From Candidatus Hodarchaeota archaeon (lineage in GTDB: Archaea; Asgardarchaeota; Lokiarchaeia; Sigyniarchaeales; SOKP01), in NCBI GenBank assembly GCA_048887225.1, contig JBHLJY010000009.1:1-64000 (forward strand): a stretch of 64,000 bases of DNA. Direction: 5' to 3'. Shown here piece by piece: positions 13,969 to 30,685 of the stretch. The notes under the pieces are model-generated. The model worked only from the letters and a program-made list of their open reading frames with translations, did no database searches and had not been told where the DNA came from. Position 1 is the first letter of the stretch, and every line of letters starts with the position of its first letter. Position numbers and translations under genes: made by a program.

Positions 13969-16869
13969 TTAGAAGACTATTCCTCTTTTTCTTGCAATAA
14001 ATTTTGCAAGCTCAAAATTTAAAATACATATCAATGAAATCCCAAAACACACAATCCAGTCTAAAAGCGATAGATACATAAACATGAAGTTAATCCCATT
14101 CATTGCGAGCCAGACTTGAACTCCAGGTATGTACATTAGCGCTAAGAATAATCCGAATAATAAACCAATCAAATAAAGTATTCTATTGCTCCAATCTTCT
14201 TTAAGGCTTTTTCTTAACGATTTATTTGGTCTTCTGATTTGTAGAATTAAAAATGATTCACAGAAAAATAAAGTAACCATAAGCATAGTAAGAGCCTTAG
14301 CAATACGTAAATCTATACCAGGTGTCAATTCTTCTGTTGTCTCTGAGCTATAAAGATATCCCTCATTAAACGCACCAAAATGTGTATTGCTATAAGTTAT
14401 AGGATAAAGTCCAGAAATAACTGTAAAATATACTATAAGCATACATATAGCAAGTAATGCTCCAAAAACAAGCATTAGATATATTATATTCTTTGACAAA
14501 ATTTCCTCCGAATCGCGAGGTTTCTCATTCATTACATCGTTAGATATTGTATCGAAAGTGAGGAGCAAACCAGGAAATGTATGAAGCGTTATTGATAAAA
14601 AGATCCATTGCCAATAAAATTCTTCGTTTAAAAAGTATGGTAAATCAAAGATTACGGCCAAGATAAATTGAACAATTCCTTCAAATAAATTTATACAGAT
14701 ATAAAAGAAAACAACTGCTCGAATTTTAGCAAAGATTCCCCTTCCTTGATGGATTCCCTTGACAATCGAATTGAATGAATCGTCTGAAATTATCATGTCT
14801 GAAGCTTCTTTAGCAACATCCGTACCTTGTATGCCCATTGCCACTCCTGTATCTGCCATATTTAATGCAAGAGCATCGTTAACTCCATCGCCAGTCATCG
14901 CTACAACTCTTTTATTGCCTTGATATCTCTCTACGATTATTTGTTTATCCGCAGGTGCAACCCTAGCAAATACTTTTATATGACTAAAATCTTTATGATC
15001 AATATCTTTAATTTGGTATCCTTCAACAGTATAATCATTTTCATCCTGTACTATTGCTATTTGTGAAGCAATAGCTTTTGCAGTTATTGGAGAATCTCCT
15101 GTAATCATTACGACATCTACACCAGCATTTTGGCATTCCTCCACTGATTCCTTCACTCCTTCTCGTGGAGGGTCCAAAATCGTCACAAAACCAATATATA
15201 CTAAATCAGATTCACATAACTGCCTGTTCTCATCAATATCCATAGGAATTTCATCCATTTTTTTATAACATAAACTTAATATTCGGTAGCCCTTGTTCGC
15301 AAATTCATTTATTTTTAATTCTAATTTCTCTTTTAATTTTGGTGTAAATAATTCTTCTCGGTTATTAATAAGGATTCTTGAGCATAAATCAATCAAAATT
15401 TCGCTTGCCCCCTTAGTAAAAGCATAATACTCGGAATCTGTTCTGAAAACCTTAGTCATTCTTTTTATTGAGGAATCAAAAGGAAATTCTTTAATTTGTT
15501 CATAATCTTCAATAATGTAATCCCCCATACCTTTTTGAAATAACACCATTAAGGCTCCTTCTGTTGGAGAACCTATAACGCTCCATTTATTAATCATTTT
15601 ACCTGATGCTTTAACCTCGTTCTTAACAAGAGCAGAATTATTATTTAAAAAGCCAGAAATTAGCAATTGTTTTAATTCAGGAAAATCCTCAATGTGAGTT
15701 ACTATAACAAGATTCTTAGGATCGGTCATTAAAAAAATATCTCCATCTGGATCATATCCACGACCTGTTACCCTAAAGATCGAATCATTTACCCAAATAT
15801 ATTCAATGCTCATTTGATTTTTTGTTAAAGTTCCTGTTTTATCGCTACAAACTACGCTTACGCGCCCTAAACTATCAACTGATGCGAGATTTCGAACAAT
15901 TACACCATGGCGAGCCATAGCTAAAACACCAGTTAATAAGATAATGGTAACAAGGAGGGGAATATTTATAGGCATAATATCCATAGCGGAATTAAGGCTT
16001 TTGACTATCTCCAACTTTTTATAACCGCTTCCAATCCATATCAACATTAGAATTATGAACCAAAATACCATAACTAATAACCCTAACCATTTTCCAAAAT
16101 TATTCATTTTTTTTCTAATAGGAATTTCACTTGTTCCAGCTTCTTCTAAACCCCGTGAAATTTTTCCTATTTCCGTATTTCCACCTATGGCTGTTGTGAT
16201 TGCTGTTCCATTTCCAGTCGTAATATATGTTCCATAATAGATCATGTTTTTGCGGTCTCCTATCGGTATATTTGCTCTATCTAATGCATCACCTTCTTGA
16301 AATTTAATTACAGATTCGCTTTCACCAGTTAAAGCGGCCTCATTTACTTCTAAATTTGAAGATTGAATAATTCTTGCATCTGCCGGAATTTTATCTCCTT
16401 GGTTTAAAAATAATAAATCTCCAAGTACAATCTGTTTAGTGGGAATTTCTTTCGTCTCTCCTTCTCTAATTACTGTTGAGGTCGGAGCAGTGAGTTCTCG
16501 AAGAGCTTTCAGTTTTTTAGTTGCCCGGTACTGTTGGAATATAGCAATTAAACAATTAAAAAAAACTATACCTAATGTTAAAAAAATGAACGTCATATTG
16601 CCGCCTTCTCCAAAGAACCAAGCTAGAAATAGAATTAAAGCTCCTATGAGGTAAATAACAATCAACCAATTAAACAACGGCGCTAAATATATTTTGATGA
16701 ATCCTTTCGAAACCTTAGGAATTTCATTCGGACCATATAGTTGTAATCTTAATTCAGCTTCTTCTACGCTTAAACCGTTTTTTGGATCAGTTTTGAATTT
16801 TTTATAGATCTCCTCTAAATCTAAGGTATGAAAATTTTGTTCTATGAGGCTTTCATCCGTAACTGTCAT
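13969..16869 (-). CDS. P-type ATPase (P2A-like scaffold, atypical M4 PINI and M6 His)
   Basis: LTGES, CSDKTGTLT, KGASE, DPPR, MITGD, MTGDGVNDA; about 10 TMs. Confidence 0.95.
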   Translation of the reverse strand: MTVTDESLIEQNFHTLDLEEIYKKFKTDPKNGLSVEEAELRLQLYGPNEIPKVSKGFIKIYLAPLFNWLIVIYLIGALILFLAWFFGEGGNMTFIFLTLGIVFFNCLIAIFQQYRATKKLKALRELTAPTSTVIREGETKEIPTKQIVLGDLLFLNQGDKIPADARIIQSSNLEVNEAALTGESESVIKFQEGDALDRANIPIGDRKNMIYYGTYITTGNGTAITTAIGGNTEIGKISRGLEEAGTSEIPIRKKMNNFGKWLGLLVMVFWFIILMLIWIGSGYKKLEIVKSLNSAMDIMPINIPLLVTIILLTGVLAMARHGVIVRNLASVDSLGRVSVVCSDKTGTLTKNQMSIEYIWVNDSIFRVTGRGYDPDGDIFLMTDPKNLVIVTHIEDFPELKQLLISGFLNNNSALVKNEVKASGKMINKWSVIGSPTEGALMVLFQKGMGDYIIEDYEQIKEFPFDSSIKRMTKVFRTDSEYYAFTKGASEILIDLCSRILINNREELFTPKLKEKLELKINEFANKGYRILSLCYKKMDEIPMDIDENRQLCESDLVYIGFVTILDPPREGVKESVEECQNAGVDVVMITGDSPITAKAIASQIAIVQDENDYTVEGYQIKDIDHKDFSHIKVFARVAPADKQIIVERYQGNKRVVAMTGDGVNDALALNMADTGVAMGIQGTDVAKEASDMIISDDSFNSIVKGIHQGRGIFAKIRAVVFFYICINLFEGIVQFILAVIFDLPYFLNEEFYWQWIFLSITLHTFPGLLLTFDTISNDVMNEKPRDSEEILSKNIIYLMLVFGALLAICMLIVYFTVISGLYPITYSNTHFGAFNEGYLYSSETTEELTPGIDLRIAKALTMLMVTLFFCESFLILQIRRPNKSLRKSLKEDWSNRILYLIGLLFGLFLALMYIPGVQVWLAMNGINFMFMYLSLLDWIVCFGISLICILNFELAKFIARKRGIVF

Positions 16870-16976
16870 TACAAGACAAAATAATTATGTTAAAATTTTT
16901 GAAAAATATAATTTTTATAATAAGACAATAAGATTAATTGTTTTTAATTGTTCTTTTTCAATAAAATCTATTTATA

Positions 16977-19859
16977 TTAAAAAATTATTTCTCTTTTTCT
17001 GGCGTAATATTTAAATATTTCAATTCCAATTATTCCAGGAGTGGCAAATAAGATGCAGAGTAACCAATCTGTAGCGCTCAAAAATATAAAATTCAATTGA
17101 AAATTAAAGCGAATTGTATTATTTACAAAGTTATTAAACAGATAGGAGAAACATACAACTAAAATATGTAGAGATAATGTAATTATACAAATTATAAATA
17201 ATATTATACCAAAATCTTCTTCCTTGACACTCTTTATCGCTGACTGGTTAGGTCTTCTAAAAGTCCATATAAACATTGTTTCAACGATATATAGCGTAGT
17301 TATGAACATTGTCCTTGCTTTCATAGCCACTAGCTCATCATCTGAAGTGCCTTTTGGAATATAACTAAGTAAAAAATATTCGTTTGAATTCCATCCGTTT
17401 AATTGGATAACACCCCAAAGAGTAAATTGAATCGCCATAATTAATCCTATCCCCATTAAGAAAGCTTGCAATAATAACATTTTCCACATATTTTTGTTTA
17501 ATAATTCTTCTTCATCTCTTGGAGGTTCTTGCATAATATCTTTTGGATGCCTATCTATGACTAAAGCTAAAGATGGGAGGGAATGAACCACTCCAAAAAT
17601 ATAGATATGCTGCCATTCTGAACTGAATAACTCAAAAGTAGGTAAAAATTCATACCCAAAAAATATCACAGCTTCCATAATATTTAGACATATAAAAAAA
17701 TAAATTAAGGTTCTAATTTTAGAAAAGAGTCCTCTCCCTATTTTAACGCCTTGCTCGATTGAAGTGAAATTATCATCCGAGATTACCATGTCTGCCGTTT
17801 CTTTTGCTACATCCGTACCTGTTATACCCATAGCTACTCCTGCATTCGCCATTTTTAAGGCAAGAGAATCATTTATACCATCTCCCGTCATTGCTACAAC
17901 TCTATCTTGAGCTTGATATTTTTCAACAATTACTTCCTTATCGGCAGGAGCAACTCTTGCGAACACAGATACTTTATAAAACTCATCAGGGCTAATATTT
18001 TTAATTTCCCTCCCCTCAATTACTTTATCTCCTTCTTTGAAAATTCCCATTTCTGCAGCAATAGTTTTAGCTGTAGCAGGATGATCGCCTGTTATCATAA
18101 TAACTCTAATATCCGCAAATTGGCATTCATCAACAGCTTCTTTAACGCCTATTCGAGGTGGATCCATAATAGAGACAAAACCTAAGAATATTAGTTTCTT
18201 CTCAATTTTCTCTCTATTTGGCTTTTCAAATTCTTCTAATTTTCTATAACCAGTAGCCAATGTTCTAAATCCTTGATTAGCACGATCTTTTATTAGATTT
18301 GAAACTTCTCCTTTCAATTTGTCATTAAATGGCTCAATTTTGCCATTTATTTCAATTTCGGAGGATATCTTTAAAATTTTTTCGGGAGCTCCTTTCGTAA
18401 AAGAAAGGATTTCATATTTTTCTTCAAATACATTACATACTGTTGTCATTCTTTTTAATTCAGAGCTAAAAGAATATTCATGCATTATTTCATATTTATT
18501 TTTAATGTCTTGTGGGATATACCCTGCTTTTTCTGCTAGAACTAATAAAGCAGCCTCCGTTGGAGATCCTAATGCTCTTCTAACTGATTTTTCTCTTGTT
18601 TCTCCAACCTTAACTTTTACATCTTCAAATATAAGATTAGCGTTATTGTTTACTACAATAGATTTAATAAATATTTCAAAGGTAGGATTATTATTCAAAC
18701 TTATAGGATTCCTTTCTTTTAGGATCTCACCTTTAGCTTCGTATCCTGATCCAGTAACTTCAAACTCCTCATTACTGATCCAAAATTTTTCAACAGTCAT
18801 TTCATTTCTAGTGATGGTTCCCGTTTTATCTGAGCATATTACAGATACACGACCTAAGGATTCAATTGCAGATAAGTTTTTAATAATTACTCCATTTTGC
18901 GCCATATTTAGAACTCCTGTAACGAGAACGAGAGTTGTTAAAAGTGGTAAATTAATAGGCATGATGTTCATTGCTCTTAGGATTGAGCTTACTAAGGCCT
19001 CACTGATAAAGTCTCCATAAAATTGGTCACTTATGATTAAAATTGAGAATTTATATACGATGAGAATAATAAGGTTAATAATAACAACTGTTCCTAAGAT
19101 ATATCCTAATCTGTTTAATTTATGAGTTAAGGGGATATCCTCAATACTTCCCATCTCGTTTAGCTGGTTTGAAATTTTTCCTATTTCTGTGTTAATGCCT
19201 GTTCCTGTTATTAAAATTTTGGCTCTCCCAGTATAAACATACGTACCCATGAAAACCATATTGCTTTGATCTTGAATAGGAACATTTTGTTTTTCAATAA
19301 TCATGTTATTTTTTTCTTCTGGTTCACTTTCTCCCGTTAAAGGAGCTTCATCAACGGTTAGATTCATAGATTCTAGAATTCGTCCGTCTGCAGGAATTTT
19401 TGCCCCTTGATTTAAAATTACAATATCTCCAGGTACAAGATCTCTAGTGGGTATTTCTTGCCCAAACTTTTTTCCATCTCTTATTACAGTTGCTTTTAAC
19501 GCTGAGATTTGCCTTAGAGACTCTAATGCTTTTTGCGCTCTGAATTGTTGCACTATTGCGGTAAATGAGTTCATACCAACAACAGTAAAAGTGATTATTG
19601 TGCTTTCTGGACTTCCAAGAATGATAACAACGACTCCTGTGATTATCAAAATTACTATTAAGAAATTAAATATTGGAGCTAAATATACTCTCCATATAGA
19701 TTTTTTAATTTTTGGGAGTTCATTATATCCATATTCACTATAAAGACTTTCTAATTCTAAAGTTTGCAGTCCATTTTCGGAATCAGAATTAAATCTTGCT
19801 AATAATTCATCTATATGTTTATTATAATAATTTTGATTAGTAGTATTTGCTAGAGACAT
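16977..19859 (-). CDS. P-type ATPase paralog (atypical M4 PINL and M6 His)
   Basis: LTGES, CSDKTGTIT, KGAPE, DPPR, MITGDH, MTGDGINDS. Confidence 0.95.
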   Translation of the reverse strand: MSLANTTNQNYYNKHIDELLARFNSDSENGLQTLELESLYSEYGYNELPKIKKSIWRVYLAPIFNFLIVILIITGVVVIILGSPESTIITFTVVGMNSFTAIVQQFRAQKALESLRQISALKATVIRDGKKFGQEIPTRDLVPGDIVILNQGAKIPADGRILESMNLTVDEAPLTGESEPEEKNNMIIEKQNVPIQDQSNMVFMGTYVYTGRAKILITGTGINTEIGKISNQLNEMGSIEDIPLTHKLNRLGYILGTVVIINLIILIVYKFSILIISDQFYGDFISEALVSSILRAMNIMPINLPLLTTLVLVTGVLNMAQNGVIIKNLSAIESLGRVSVICSDKTGTITRNEMTVEKFWISNEEFEVTGSGYEAKGEILKERNPISLNNNPTFEIFIKSIVVNNNANLIFEDVKVKVGETREKSVRRALGSPTEAALLVLAEKAGYIPQDIKNKYEIMHEYSFSSELKRMTTVCNVFEEKYEILSFTKGAPEKILKISSEIEINGKIEPFNDKLKGEVSNLIKDRANQGFRTLATGYRKLEEFEKPNREKIEKKLIFLGFVSIMDPPRIGVKEAVDECQFADIRVIMITGDHPATAKTIAAEMGIFKEGDKVIEGREIKNISPDEFYKVSVFARVAPADKEVIVEKYQAQDRVVAMTGDGINDSLALKMANAGVAMGITGTDVAKETADMVISDDNFTSIEQGVKIGRGLFSKIRTLIYFFICLNIMEAVIFFGYEFLPTFELFSSEWQHIYIFGVVHSLPSLALVIDRHPKDIMQEPPRDEEELLNKNMWKMLLLQAFLMGIGLIMAIQFTLWGVIQLNGWNSNEYFLLSYIPKGTSDDELVAMKARTMFITTLYIVETMFIWTFRRPNQSAIKSVKEEDFGIILFIICIITLSLHILVVCFSYLFNNFVNNTIRFNFQLNFIFLSATDWLLCILFATPGIIGIEIFKYYARKREIIF

Positions 19860-19969: not shown

Positions 19970-20938
19970 TTAATTTATTACTAAATGATTTTGACTTTGT
20001 GGCACTCCTAAAATATCTTTTAAAATGTGAAATTTCTTTCGTATTGTTGTACTTGAAAAACTTGTTGACTCTTCAATAAGACTCTGCGTAAATATTTTCC
20101 GTTTATCTTTTTCTAAAGTTTGTCCTATGTAATAAATTAATCCAGCTGTAAATGCTTTATAATTAAAATTTTTTAATTCTTCGTAAGAGATCTTTTTAAG
20201 CAATTTATCAGCTAGTAATTGCATATCAATCTTTAATTTATCGTATTCAGCTTTATCAGGCATATAATATCTAACTTTGTCATAAGAAATGTTATTTAAA
20301 TTTTTTTGAAATAGGATTTTTATTTTTTCTTTTATTTCTTTTTCAATATCTGCTTTAGTCTTTAACTTTTTCCACATTTTCTCAGTCTTTTTTACTTTTA
20401 GCATCGCATTATTAAGCATCTTTTTATTAATTTTATGTCCTAACTCGTTGCAAACTTCTATATATTGTTCTATACGGACATTAGTAGTTTCTTTAATTTC
20501 CATCCATATAATTGCAAGAAAAATAATTACCATGTTTTGGTATGTTCTTCGGTGTTTTCTATTAAATTTGAGATATCTTTTTTTTATTGCTTGAAATTTT
20601 ACTTGATCAATATTAAATCCATAATTCTTCAATAATTCAATCGTTTTTCGTTGTTCTGTAAAACTTGTTTCGTAATCTCTATACCACTTTTCGAGCATCT
20701 GAATTTTATCGTATTTTTGCTTGATAATAGGATCTTGTATAGCTTTTGAATCTCTTATTCTTATGTTTCGCTCATAATCTAATTGTGACTCTTTATATTG
20801 ACTATTAATTGGCATATCAAATTCGTAATTATCATCTATAGTTAAACCACAATCTTGACAAACGAGAAATCCGCCCTCACTTTTAATATTTTTGTGAGGA
20901 CATTCATTATTTGAATTATTTTGTCTCAGTTTTTTCAA
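19970..20938 (-). CDS. Divergent TFB/TFIIB-like protein
   Basis: Zn ribbon CPH...CQDCG, two cyclin-like repeats (AFTAGLIYYI), terminal FTQSLIEESTSFSSTTIRKKF matching the TFB HTH. Confidence 0.7.
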   Translation of the reverse strand: MKKLRQNNSNNECPHKNIKSEGGFLVCQDCGLTIDDNYEFDMPINSQYKESQLDYERNIRIRDSKAIQDPIIKQKYDKIQMLEKWYRDYETSFTEQRKTIELLKNYGFNIDQVKFQAIKKRYLKFNRKHRRTYQNMVIIFLAIIWMEIKETTNVRIEQYIEVCNELGHKINKKMLNNAMLKVKKTEKMWKKLKTKADIEKEIKEKIKILFQKNLNNISYDKVRYYMPDKAEYDKLKIDMQLLADKLLKKISYEELKNFNYKAFTAGLIYYIGQTLEKDKRKIFTQSLIEESTSFSSTTIRKKFHILKDILGVPQSQNHLVIN

Positions 20939-21092: not shown

Positions 21093-21659
21093 ATGGTATG
21101 GTTAGAAGAAGGATATAGGAAAATTCTTGTAATTTTTGGTATTCTTTTTATAATTCTTTCAGCTATAGAGTTATTTAATATTTATTTGCTTATGAATACC
21201 ACAATAAATTTATATGGTAAAAACATGCTTTTTCAGGAATTTATTTTCAACTCAACTATCGTTCCATTATCGGGAACTCTATTATTTATTTTTATCATAA
21301 TATCTATCATTTTCTTTTTAATAGTTGGAATTCTTTTTTTGAAAATTTCTTCAAAAAAAATTGTAGATAATAAACTCAGAGCTAAAAATATGCTTATGCT
21401 AGGAGTTTTAATTTTAATTTTTTCTTATGTTAAATTGGGTTATATAACTTTTTTAAATCGAACTGAAATTAATATCGGCGGTAAATTAAGAACATTCCAA
21501 CATATTATTTTTAGTTCTAGCTTTGGTCCTTTTTACATTAGTGTTATTTGGTTCTTTTTTATTGGAGTGGTTTGCTTTTATTTGATGAGTGGCTTAGTTT
21601 TTGGAGGCCTAGGGCTACATTGGTCGTTGGAACTTCAAAAACAAGAAAAAGAAGGTTAG
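21093..21659 (+). CDS. 4-TM membrane protein
   Basis: Four hydrophobic segments. Confidence 0.75.
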   Translation: MVWLEEGYRKILVIFGILFIILSAIELFNIYLLMNTTINLYGKNMLFQEFIFNSTIVPLSGTLLFIFIIISIIFFLIVGILFLKISSKKIVDNKLRAKNMLMLGVLILIFSYVKLGYITFLNRTEINIGGKLRTFQHIIFSSSFGPFYISVIWFFFIGVVCFYLMSGLVFGGLGLHWSLELQKQEKEG

Positions 21660-21703: not shown

Positions 21704-22645
21704 TTAGGTTAGCTTATCTCTAATTTGTTTTGCTCTACTACGAAGTGTTACCTCTGTTATTTTTGCAATTTCCGCGACTCGTGATTGGGTTTTACGCACA
21801 GCCCCGTCTTTAGCTGCTATGTAAATACATGCCGCAGCCAAACCTTTTGGATCTTTTCCTGTTCTCTTTAAACCATTTTGAGATGCTTGCTTCAACATGG
21901 TAATGGCATTTTTTTGAATATTCATTGGTAATTCTAATTCATTCCCGAATCGAAAAATTAAACTTTCAGCAGTAATGGGTTGATACCTTAAATTTAATTC
22001 AGATAATACCTCTCGGATAATCATAGCAAGACTTCTATGAACAGTTCTTCTAGGTGTTAATGACGCTTCGCAAACTTCATCAAGTAGACGTGGGAAATCA
22101 TGAACTCTAATAGCAGCATAAAGAGCTCCAGCAATAAAACCATTAATTGACCTTCCCATTGTAAGTTTTTTCTTAGCTACAAGAGAATAAATCTTCCACG
22201 CACTATCAGAGATATATTCAGGGATATTTAATTTAGAACAAAGCATTTTTAATTTCGGTTTTGCTTCCCAAAAATTCCTTTCAATACTCGAGATTAACGA
22301 ATTTTGAATTTTTGATAACCGTGAAAAAAGAGCTTGTTCTTTTGCACCAATTGACTTGCCTTTTGAATCAGTTTTAGTGTTGGGTAGCATAGTACGGGGG
22401 CCGAAGTCTCTCCATCGAGGTTCGGTACGTTTTCTATTCTGGATTTCTTCTACTGTGTAAGCACGTCTTTCATTTCCAACAAATTCTTTTTGATAAATCA
22501 TACCACAATTTAAACAAAGACGATTTCCATCTCTTACTTGAATAGATGGTTTACTGCAACATCCTTCTGTCTTAAGTGAATCATGATCATCAAGATTATC
22601 TTTATTTCTATTATTTCTTAAAAATTCGCGTTGTTGATAATTCAT
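21704..22645 (-). CDS. tfb: Transcription initiation factor IIB (TFB)
   Basis: CC...CLNCG ribbon, ERRAY reader, GRSI..FIAGALYAAIR, GKDPKGLAAACIYIA, TQSRVAEIAKITEVTLRSR. Confidence 0.92.
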   Translation of the reverse strand: MNYQQREFLRNNRNKDNLDDHDSLKTEGCCSKPSIQVRDGNRLCLNCGMIYQKEFVGNERRAYTVEEIQNRKRTEPRWRDFGPRTMLPNTKTDSKGKSIGAKEQALFSRLSKIQNSLISSIERNFWEAKPKLKMLCSKLNIPEYISDSAWKIYSLVAKKKLTMGRSINGFIAGALYAAIRVHDFPRLLDEVCEASLTPRRTVHRSLAMIIREVLSELNLRYQPITAESLIFRFGNELELPMNIQKNAITMLKQASQNGLKRTGKDPKGLAAACIYIAAKDGAVRKTQSRVAEIAKITEVTLRSRAKQIRDKLT

Positions 22646-29572: not shown

Positions 29573-30124
29573 TTATATAAATATTATGATAAAAATTATT
29601 AGGAAAAGGGGTGTAAGAAAGTCTGCTAATGAAGTTATAAATGGAATCAAGAAGTTGTTAGGATCCTTACCCCTTTTAAAAATATAAATTGAACTAATGA
29701 AAAGTAAAACAAACATAAATATAAAAAGCAATAACACAGTGATTATTAAAATAAAAACTATTAGGAATGGATTAAAAATCTTAACTCCCGTTGTAATTGC
29801 AATAATATAGCTTATAAAAATTAATATTATCAAGCTCAATAAAATGGTTATTAATAGTCCGAAAAAATCTTCCTTTAATCGATTAGATTTTTGAATTTTT
29901 GGTTTAATAATACCGAGATATAAACTTGATGTAAGTCGAGACACCAAAACTGTGGATATATCTCCTATTAAAGAATTTAAAGCAGGTAATATTAGAAGCA
30001 TAATTGGAAGAGCATATAAAATCTCTTGATTGGTTGATAGTAATGTTCCTGAAAACAAACCAAATAATGAAGAAATAATAACAATAATAATGGATTCTTT
30101 GATTATTTTCAGAAAATATTTCAT
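29573..30124 (-). CDS. MgtE/SLC41 integral membrane domain (half 2)
   Basis: PALNSLIGD and DPNNFLIPFITSLAD motifs. Confidence 0.85.
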   Translation of the reverse strand: MKYFLKIIKESIIIVIISSLFGLFSGTLLSTNQEILYALPIMLLILPALNSLIGDISTVLVSRLTSSLYLGIIKPKIQKSNRLKEDFFGLLITILLSLIILIFISYIIAITTGVKIFNPFLIVFILIITVLLLFIFMFVLLFISSIYIFKRGKDPNNFLIPFITSLADFLTPLFLIIFIIIFI

Positions 30125-30685
30125 TCATGGCACCCCCAAAATCAATAAAGTCATGTAAAAACAAACTATTGTAAAAAAGTCATCAATGGCAGTCATTATA
30201 GGATTGACCATATTATTTGGATCAAATCCATATCTAAAAGCAATATAGTTTAAGGTGGTTGAGCTTGGAATTGAAATAGAGATAGTAAATATGATAGAAA
30301 TGATAGGTATAAGAATAAATATCTCAATTGGAAAAATAAAAATCTTGATAATTAAAATATTTAATATTATACAAAACACACCTATTAAAAAACCTGTAAC
30401 TAAAGACAAGGCAAATGTGGCTAATGTATTTTCTAATAATGATTTTTTATTGAATTCTCCTATAATGAAATCTCTTGAAGTTCTTGCAATAAAAGGTCCA
30501 CTTAGATTTCCTCTAAGAGACAATAAGGCTGGAACGATTATTATTAAAAAAAGAAAACTTTTAAAGGGTAATATTAACATCAAAAGTATTATCCCAGCAA
30601 AGATATCTCCAATGATGGAGATAATCTCAGAGGTGAATGTTTCTTTGATGATCTTACTTTTCCCTTTAGATTCTTTTTGTTCCAT
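30125..30685 (-). CDS. MgtE/SLC41 integral membrane domain (half 1)
   Basis: PALLSLRGN and DPNNMVNPIMTAIDD motifs. Confidence 0.85.
   Translation of the reverse strand: MEQKESKGKSKIIKETFTSEIISIIGDIFAGIILLMLILPFKSFLFLIIIVPALLSLRGNLSGPFIARTSRDFIIGEFNKKSLLENTLATFALSLVTGFLIGVFCIILNILIIKIFIFPIEIFILIPIISIIFTISISIPSSTTLNYIAFRYGFDPNNMVNPIMTAIDDFFTIVCFYMTLLILGVP

Follow-up and report, generated by a model that had tools for sequence, protein, structure and literature searches.

What does a P-type ATPase transport once the ligands of its canonical calcium site have been replaced? The question is raised by two adjacent genes, A and B (products P0001 and P0002), on a contig of a Candidatus Hodarchaeota archaeon (JBHLJY010000009.1, positions 1 to 64,000; this whole 64,000-nucleotide stretch is hereafter called the window). 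P-type ATPase subfamilies are defined by ligands in the transmembrane helices M4, M5, and M6. Since 1998 the list has grown by a single family, P6 (PMC10654040). Both proteins are catalytically complete P2-scaffold pumps in which the M4 Glu and the M6 Asp of calcium pumps are replaced by Ile and His, respectively. By sequence they belong to a distinct subfamily of single origin, centered on Asgard archaea, and their substrate is possibly a small monovalent cation.

Gene pair and transport site

Genes A and B lie in tandem, head to tail, on the minus strand, and their products are 41% identical over the full length (BLASTP). The genes, the spacer between them, and the motifs are located in the window as follows.

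13969..16869 (-): gene A, 966 amino acids (aa), reading frame open and full length; the 'A' paralog of the PxNxP/His-M6 clade
16318..16329 (-): gene A TGES, the A-domain dephosphorylation motif (not the P4-type DGET)
15958..15984 (-): gene A M4, MDIMPINIP; I301 at the SERCA E309 position, N302 at G310
15829..15843 (-): gene A DKTGT, the phosphorylation motif (D343)
14875..14892 (-): gene A GDGVND
14680..14694 (-): gene A M5, INLFE; N727 and E730 correspond to SERCA N768 and E771 and are retained
14569..14595 (-): gene A M6, SITLHTFPG; S759, L762, and H763 at the N796, T799, and D800 positions
14254..14268 (-): gene A M8, FFCES; E871 corresponds to SERCA E908
16870..16976 (-): B-A spacer, 107 nt, AT-rich, with a TATA-like run as read from the sequence
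16977..19859 (-): gene B, 960 aa, reading frame open and full length; paralog in the 'B' subclade
19326..19337 (-): gene B TGES
18945..18971 (-): gene B M4, MNIMPINLP
18816..18830 (-): gene B DKTGT
17868..17885 (-): gene B GDGIND
17673..17687 (-): gene B M5, LNIME; Asn and Glu retained
17571..17597 (-): gene B M6, FGVVHSLPS; His at the D800 position
17277..17291 (-): gene B M8, YIVET; Glu retained

Pfam assigns Cation_ATPase_N, E1-E2_ATPase, Cation_ATPase, Hydrolase (HAD), and Cation_ATPase_C to both proteins, in a P2 architecture with 10 transmembrane helices (10-TM). The motifs TGES, DKTGT, KGA, DPPR, TGD, and GDGxND occur once in each gene; the catalytic machinery is therefore intact in both paralogs, as an earlier reading made from the sequence alone had proposed. 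The M4, M6, M5, and M8 motifs quoted in that sequence-only reading are each present once, shifted by no more than 1 to 2 nt. No metal-binding, Cys-rich, or His-rich stretches were found at the termini of either protein sequence. The 107-nt spacer may hold a promoter of its own for gene A.

In a HMMER alignment to the solved Listeria Ca2+-ATPase, PINI falls under PEAL in M4 and S-I-T-L-H under N-L-V-N-D in M6, and a 130-sequence MAFFT alignment gave the same site mapping. Residues were tabulated from this 130-row alignment for 32 clade and 96 PEGL-type representatives, clustered at 50% identity; the 32 clade representatives share an overall identity of only ∼35 to 45%.

SERCA1a E309: gene A I301; clade (n = 32) I23/F3/V3/W2/L1; PEGL-type (n = 96) E94
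SERCA1a G310: gene A N302; clade N29; PEGL-type G82
SERCA1a N768: gene A N727; clade N28; PEGL-type N89
SERCA1a E771: gene A E730; clade E32; PEGL-type E92
SERCA1a N796: gene A S759; clade Y10/F8/V/I/S (Asn lost); PEGL-type N90
SERCA1a T799: gene A L762; clade mixed; PEGL-type T86
SERCA1a D800: gene A H763; clade H31, Q1; PEGL-type D89
SERCA1a E908: gene A E871; clade E30; PEGL-type Q55/E38

The E309/N796/D800 triad is the one site common to SERCA site II, PMCA, SPCA, and LMCA1, and Ca2+ transport is lost when it is mutated. Because the equivalents of these three residues are replaced, site II is lost in all 32 representatives. Judged by the alignment, the site formed by the M4 Glu, the M6 Asn, and the M6 Asp no longer exists, its place being taken by hydrophobic or aromatic side chains, and the site-I region is rebuilt from an Asn on M4 (one residue past the lost Glu), an Asn and a Glu on M5, the His on M6, and the Glu on M8. 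The alignment further indicates gains of hydroxyls beside the His and the M8 Glu, and several neighboring positions have become aromatic; the aromatic or hydrophobic gains in M5, M6, and M8 include 723 (Y/F), 734 (F/Y), 759 (Y/F), and 868 (F/Y).

The motif P[IL]N[IL]P and the M6 His are conserved in all 120 of the closest homologs. Kept in these 120 sequences and in the 32 diverged representatives, the altered-site pattern lies, on the alignments, far beyond chance. N302, E730, H763, and E871 are conserved across sequences only ∼35 to 45% identical and accompany intact catalytic motifs, which argues for a working site. The proposal that the substitutions are under selection is borne out by their conservation across the deep clade. 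It had been framed around two diverged copies: the substitutions are indeed shared by A and B, but this framing understates the case, as the motif characterizes an entire subfamily, in which the pair is an old duplication.

A non-Ca2+ substrate, also suggested before, is a sensible inference given the loss of the site II triad. It gains strength from a third P2 pump in this genome, which is of the calcium type, with canonical PEGL and NIATDGIP. The label 'Ca2+-transporting ATPase' that the clade now carries is very probably mistaken; statements on Ca2+ signaling in Asgard archaea draw on it (PMC7997004).

Family placement, origin, and distribution

Both proteins belong to the P-type superfamily (TIGR01494, 278 and 271 bits against a cut-off of 62.3). 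In NCBIfam, type II models take the first five places (PMR1, SERCA, ENA, Na/K, and PMCA types), with scores of 350 to 476 bits, all far under their cut-offs. Neither P2A equivalog is reached, TIGR01116 or TIGR01522 (413/451 bits versus 703 and 476/435 bits versus 798), and the proteins also fall short of the P2B, P2C, and P2D models (TIGR01517, 383/401 versus 507; TIGR01106, 401/351 versus 946; TIGR01523, 410/385 versus 645). The P2A site-II ligands, an M4 PEGL Glu with an M6 Asn...Thr-Asp, are absent: I301/N302 and S759/L762/H763 stand in their place, and the same holds in all 32 representatives. Other families score lower. The P3A and P3B models span 273 to 333 bits, with the P3A model TIGR01647 at 333/315 against a cut-off of 615.5; the P5 model TIGR01657 gives 236/252 bits against 618, and the M4 motif reads MPINIP or MPINLP, not PP(E/A)LP; the P4 model TIGR01652, at 107 bits against 431, is the weakest of the type II to V families.

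Structure comparison agrees. In an AlphaFold2 model (predicted local distance difference test 79, predicted template modeling score 0.74), the M4 helix is broken or unwound at the Pro, at residues 298 to 301. The best 50 Foldseek matches in the PDB are all P2 pumps (SERCA, SPCA, H,K, Na,K, and LMCA1), SERCA E2 states being closest with a template modeling score (TM-score) of ≤0.78. A phmmer search of the PDB likewise ranked only P2 proteins, with LMCA1 best (E = 1e-115), then SPCA1 and SERCA2; look-alikes in the ESM Atlas were generic P-type clusters only. By hidden Markov model (HMM) scores, AlphaFold model, and Foldseek matches, the scaffold is P2, not P3, P4, or P5. The comparison of a model with known structures, which had been suggested as a check, thus placed the protein nearest SERCA E2 states, while no P4 structure appeared among the best 50.

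The clade shares its domain order, 10-TM architecture, fold, M5 Asn/Glu, and M8 Glu with the P2A pumps LMCA1, SERCA, and SPCA. It differs from them in having P[ILVFW]N[ILF]P in M4 where P2A pumps have PEGL, in the loss of the M6 Asn, and in the change of the M6 Asp to His. The P3A H+-ATPases, archaeal ones included, resemble it in M4, where the Pro is followed by a hydrophobic residue and has a second Pro four positions further on (PVAQP in the Methanobacterium pump), in a single ionizable M6 residue as candidate proton carrier, and in standing alone without a beta subunit, but they keep the M6 Asp where the clade has His (LLDDIP in a genuine archaeal P3A pump, 920 bits). The likeness to P2C pumps with a built-in positive charge, such as the gastric H+,K+-ATPase (Lys791) and the brine-shrimp Na+,K+-ATPase alpha2KK, is one of concept only, namely, that an ionizable residue in the cation site yields a one-site stoichiometry. 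These P2C pumps depend on a beta subunit and still have PEGL and the M6 Asp/Glu, whereas the clade has a His on M6 and has lost site II, not site I; H+,K+-ATPase and Na+,K+-ATPase types were both among the sequence and fold matches. P6 (CtpE-like) is a P2-like prokaryotic family that keeps PEGL and has Ile at the M6 Asp (PMC10654040); it shares with the clade the loss of that Asp but not the M4 change or the His, and A and B fall outside its definition.

P4 flippases also carry Ile at the M4 Glu position, in PISL versus PINI/PINL here, and the sequence-only reading had taken this as bearing on how flippase chemistry arose from a P2 scaffold. That suggestion does not hold: both genes have TGES, not DGET, the P4 model scores 107 versus 431 bits, no P4 chain is among the top 50 folds, which are all P2, a buried, charged Glu/His/Glu/Asn cluster is retained in M5, M6, and M8, and the M4 motif resembles PVAQP of P3A at least as much as PISL. 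No CDC50-like partner was found among the neighboring genes at the loci. Ile after the M4 Pro occurs in P3A and P4 pumps alike and is therefore not diagnostic of P4; because profile scores, predicted structure, and fold matches all point to a P2 scaffold, we read the flippase link as a convergent resemblance at one residue. The accompanying observation that P4 pumps use DGET and P3A pumps keep the M6 Asp, unlike the present pair, stands, given TGES in both genes and LLDDIP in archaeal P3A.

The 32 altered-site sequences are monophyletic, with a support of 100 in FastTree (130 rows) and a Shimodaira-Hasegawa-like approximate likelihood ratio test value of 100 in IQ-TREE (64 rows). Both trees were rooted with Escherichia coli MgtA and a Methanobacterium P3A pump as P3B/P3A outgroup; the clade was delimited by its M4 motif, and those columns (∼10 of 890) were left in the trees. 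The clade branches off at the base of the sampled prokaryotic P2 pumps, where their radiation is unresolved, inside no known subgroup and outside the sampled PEGL-type pumps. Of the comparison with other P-type families that had been called for, P3A and P3B sequences thus enter the trees, as the outgroup; eukaryotic P2B/C/D, P4, and P5 references were left out of the trees, and placement against these families comes from HMM scores and fold matches. Gene A groups with P0123 and gene B with P0136, P0138, and P0139. Because the gene B subclade is sister to an 18-member set containing gene A (IQ-TREE), the A/B duplication is old. Both genes show the features that define the clade, namely, monophyly, a hydrophobic-Asn M4, a His on M6, and a Glu on M5 and on M8, and on this evidence the clade is a distinct, single-origin subfamily on the P2 scaffold.

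Searches with the motif strings, and with P-type ATPase or flippase combined with Asgard, found no paper describing the motif or the clade. The proteins score below all P2A to P2D equivalog cut-offs and fall in none of the characterized subfamilies compared. The ligand set of hydrophobic-Asn M4, His M6, and Glu M5 and M8 is new relative to the papers found, and the clade is a strongly conserved and very probably misannotated P2-type subfamily.

The search for motif-bearing ATPases that had been proposed returned almost exclusively Asgard sequences, with one Korarchaeota label and one Aerophobetes label. The best 120 database matches to gene A (67 to 96% identity) are labeled Loki-, Thor-, Heimdall-, Hod-, Odin-, or Promethearchaeota; orthologs in Asgard metagenome-assembled genomes (MAGs) span the same range, with ∼68% across many MAGs. 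Among 1.84 billion cluster representatives, searched exhaustively, ∼35 to 40 full-length clusters had the altered site, including a deeper branch of the clade with IP[FVW]NFP and His, ahead of a sharp step in score; below ∼500 to 550 bits are ordinary PEGLP/NxxTD pumps aligned only to residue ∼815. With a cut-off of E ≤ 1e-100, which lets PEGL-type pumps through as well, gene A had a match in 277/301 sampled Asgard genomes and in 67/68 of the window's own family (f1), and in most of the 277 genomes the match is full length at ∼45 to 70% identity. Both genes stand in tandem in 44 of 58 syntenic loci, and such pairs recur in, for example, G121, G071, G030, G216, and G025. By these matches, most of the Asgard genomes sampled have the clade, usually with the two genes again in tandem.

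A scan of 185,579 species genomes with an M4-centered 55-aa query gave 57 loci, all but one in Promethearchaeota, Hod, or Hermod, with the cultured Lokiarchaeum ossiferum among them; a query built from the whole-clade alignment was keyed on the generic DKTGT and GDGxND motifs and matched ordinary P2 pumps of all phyla. The clade is not universal in Asgard archaea, since the representatives of five families (G001, G038, G029, G238, and G006) have no member and carry PEGL-type pumps only. Non-Asgard archaea were sampled from one phylum, that of G301, with Thermoproteota and the other archaeal phyla left out, and its 301 genomes gave PEGL-type matches only. Two records carry other labels. The contig labeled Candidatus Aerophobetes bacterium (L142, NJBP01000013.1) holds a tandem pump pair and further genes common to Asgard loci; because of this Asgard synteny, it is probably an Asgard contig misbinned into a bacterial MAG. 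P0137, a clade member with PINIV in M4, is assigned to Candidatus Korarchaeota in four NCBI records and lies on a 156-kb contig; it is nested among Asgard members in the tree, and its label therefore reflects gene transfer or taxonomic mislabeling.

Candidate substrates

We favor the reading, with a probability of about 0.45, that the clade consists of active, stand-alone P2-scaffold pumps carrying one small monovalent cation (H+, Na+, and/or K+; possibly NH4+) at the single rebuilt site. Such a pump would run through the ordinary E1/E2 phosphoenzyme cycle with one small cation bound at that site. The M6 His would act as proton acceptor and donor or as a built-in charge-compensating residue like the Lys/Arg of H+,K+-ATPase and P3A pumps, and the M5 and M8 Glu would bind the ion and carry counter-protons, like their SERCA equivalents E771 and E908. 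The tandem pair would provide the organism's primary pumps for monovalent-ion homeostasis or membrane energization, and paralogs A and B may differ in ion or direction.

A monovalent substrate is favored because transporters for metals, Mg2+, and Ca2+ are present in the window's own genome (G000, 98% complete), but Na+/H+ antiporters and K+ uptake systems were not found there. The genome encodes three ZIP proteins, FeoB, two CDF proteins, two P1B ATPases, CorA, and two MgtE-like proteins, and a search of it for CPA, NhaA, and NhaC antiporters, Mrp-type subunits, TrkH, KUP, KdpB, and a K+ channel found none. Across 101 Asgard genomes from 24 families, TrkH, KdpA, and KUP were found in 0/101, while control genomes gave normal matches; the two-transmembrane K+ channel Ion_trans_2 was present in 10 of the 101.

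Several points weigh against a monovalent substrate. The gap-filling argument is only suggestive and, in itself, weak. The five families whose representatives lack the clade (G001, G038, G029, G238, and G006) are also without Trk, Kdp, and Kup, and therefore another K+ route must exist; CPA Na+/H+ exchangers occur in clade-bearing families (25/28 genomes of f7, 62/76 of f9, and 11/11 of f16). A cluster of one His, two Glu, and two Asn is at least as typical of Zn2+, Mn2+, or Fe2+ transport sites as of monovalent ones. With site II hydrophobic, the usual cytoplasmic entry route to site I would be altered, and the clustering of the five site residues is inferred from homology to SERCA. No conserved operon partner for the pump pair was found across Asgard loci, the neighbors in distant Asgard families being unrelated (subtilase, panB, Lon, and M29/M1 peptidases), and nothing in the context points to any ion. 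Separately, a complementary phyletic pattern between the clade and Na+/H+ exchangers was considered and rejected as not clean, with CPA proteins present in many clade-bearing families.

A bolder version, which we regard as doubtful, is that Asgard archaea have in this clade their long-missing primary pump for monovalent ions, a beta-subunit-free, single-site, His-based enzyme that exports H+ or Na+ and/or imports K+. If true, it would put an Asgard clade in the plasma-membrane role of the eukaryotic Na+,K+-ATPase and PMA1-type pumps and would explain why Trk, Kdp, and Kup occur in 0/101 Asgard genomes and recognizable K+ channels in only 10. An alternative, a class of substrate without precedent on a P2 scaffold, would be of similar novelty. 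Asgard archaea are the closest known archaeal relatives of eukaryotes, and a pump for H+, Na+, or K+ would be relevant to membrane energization and ion balance in the archaeal ancestor of eukaryotes. The substrate question is directly testable because the cultured Lokiarchaeum ossiferum carries a clade member (locus L144, CP104013.1).

The rival that survives best, though we consider it unlikely, is a transition-metal pump on the P2 scaffold, in which the His, two Glu, and two Asn would bind Mn2+, Fe2+, Zn2+, Co2+, or Ni2+ in exchange for two protons, as in SERCA, and the change of D800 to His would shift selectivity away from the hard Ca2+. The composition of the conserved His/Glu/Glu/Asn cluster fits such a role, and both counter-proton Glu of SERCA are retained. 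Sites of His, Glu, Asn, and Asp are typical of metal transporters of the ZIP, CDF, and P1B-4 (M6 HEGxT) types. A His also serves as internal counter-ion in a P1B-4 structure (Palmgren review, PMC10654040). However, the genome is already supplied with the ZIP, FeoB, CDF, and P1B proteins listed above, genes A and B lack metal-binding domains and Cys/His-rich tails, the M4 motif has no Cys or Met, and no metalloregulator or chaperone was found among the neighbors at the examined loci. The ∼68% ortholog identity across many MAGs and the near-ubiquity of the clade fit a housekeeping pump better than metal resistance or supply.

Less likely still is a pump for a large or amphipathic substrate (a lipid, a polyamine, or another organic cation), by analogy with P4 and P5 ATPases, in which the M4 Glu is also hydrophobic. 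Ile, Phe, or Trp at the E309 position and the gains at 723, 734, 759, and 868 would suit it, as would a VTT/DedA-domain gene that lies between the two ATPase genes in 5/58 loci (L143:2629-3435 (+), L119, L127, L133, and L145). This insertion is a weak hint at membrane lipid biology: it is a minority arrangement, seen in genomes closely related to one another, and the VTT domain is matched only weakly (35.7 bits versus a cut-off of 33.9). The evidence against P4 and P5 membership given above (TGES, the model scores, and top-50 fold matches that are all P2 ion pumps) counts against a large substrate as well, as do the strict conservation of the buried Glu/His/Glu cluster and the lack of a CDC50-like or other conserved partner at the examined loci.

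We judge it improbable that the pair transports Ca2+ (or Mg2+) through a noncanonical single site. The public annotation and the retention of the SERCA site-I residues N768, E771, and E908 are set against the absence of the E309/N796/D800 triad in 32/32 representatives, scores far below every Ca2+-ATPase equivalog cut-off, and a genome that keeps a canonical Ca2+-type pump along with CorA and MgtE-like proteins for Mg2+. In favor of Ca2+, an Asgard transportome study described Asgard P2 pumps as orthologs of the putative Ca2+-ATPase TC 3.A.3.2.21, at 39 to 47% identity (PMC7997004). A non-transporting ATPase, acting as sensor or regulator after loss of the substrate site along with three canonical ligands, is very improbable, as every catalytic and coupling motif is conserved and the persistence of N302, H763, E730, and E871 at ∼35 to 45% identity indicates a functional site, not decay.

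Neighboring genes and other loci

The pump pair is accompanied by a TFB-like gene, a gene for a 188-aa membrane protein, TFIIB, DUF362, GNAT, a luciferase-like oxidoreductase, and HDAC, in a synteny held only among close relatives. Directly upstream of the pair, at 19970-20938 (-), is a 322-aa open reading frame (ORF) with a CxxC...CxxC zinc ribbon and a weak match to the TFIIB zinc ribbon (E = 0.005). It is kept in place in 35/58 syntenic loci and possibly encodes a divergent TFB paralog, judging from the zinc ribbon; a canonical TFIIB gene is located at 21704-22645. The 188-aa protein, encoded at 21093-21659 (+), is a multipass membrane protein with no Pfam family, present in 32 of the 58 syntenic loci and absent from those of more distant Asgard families. 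In one Asgard family, an ORF of ∼655 aa adjoins the pump gene (L179:6083-8050 (-)) and gives a weak match to E3 UFM1-protein ligase 1 (25.7 bits versus a cut-off of 23.2); its cluster (L179, L178, L180, L192, and L193) accounts for 5/9 loci of that family.

Two observations concern other transporters. Farther along the window, at 29594-29986 and 30152-30535 (-), two tandem ORFs of ∼185 aa consist of the MgtE membrane domain only, and the pair is found in all 10 genomes of the genus. On contig C10 of G000, L004:769-3813 (+) encodes a 1,014-aa CPC-type P1B ATPase with an HMA domain at its N terminus and, at the C terminus, a long extension with repeated Cys-rich 'CGM...YYFC' modules.

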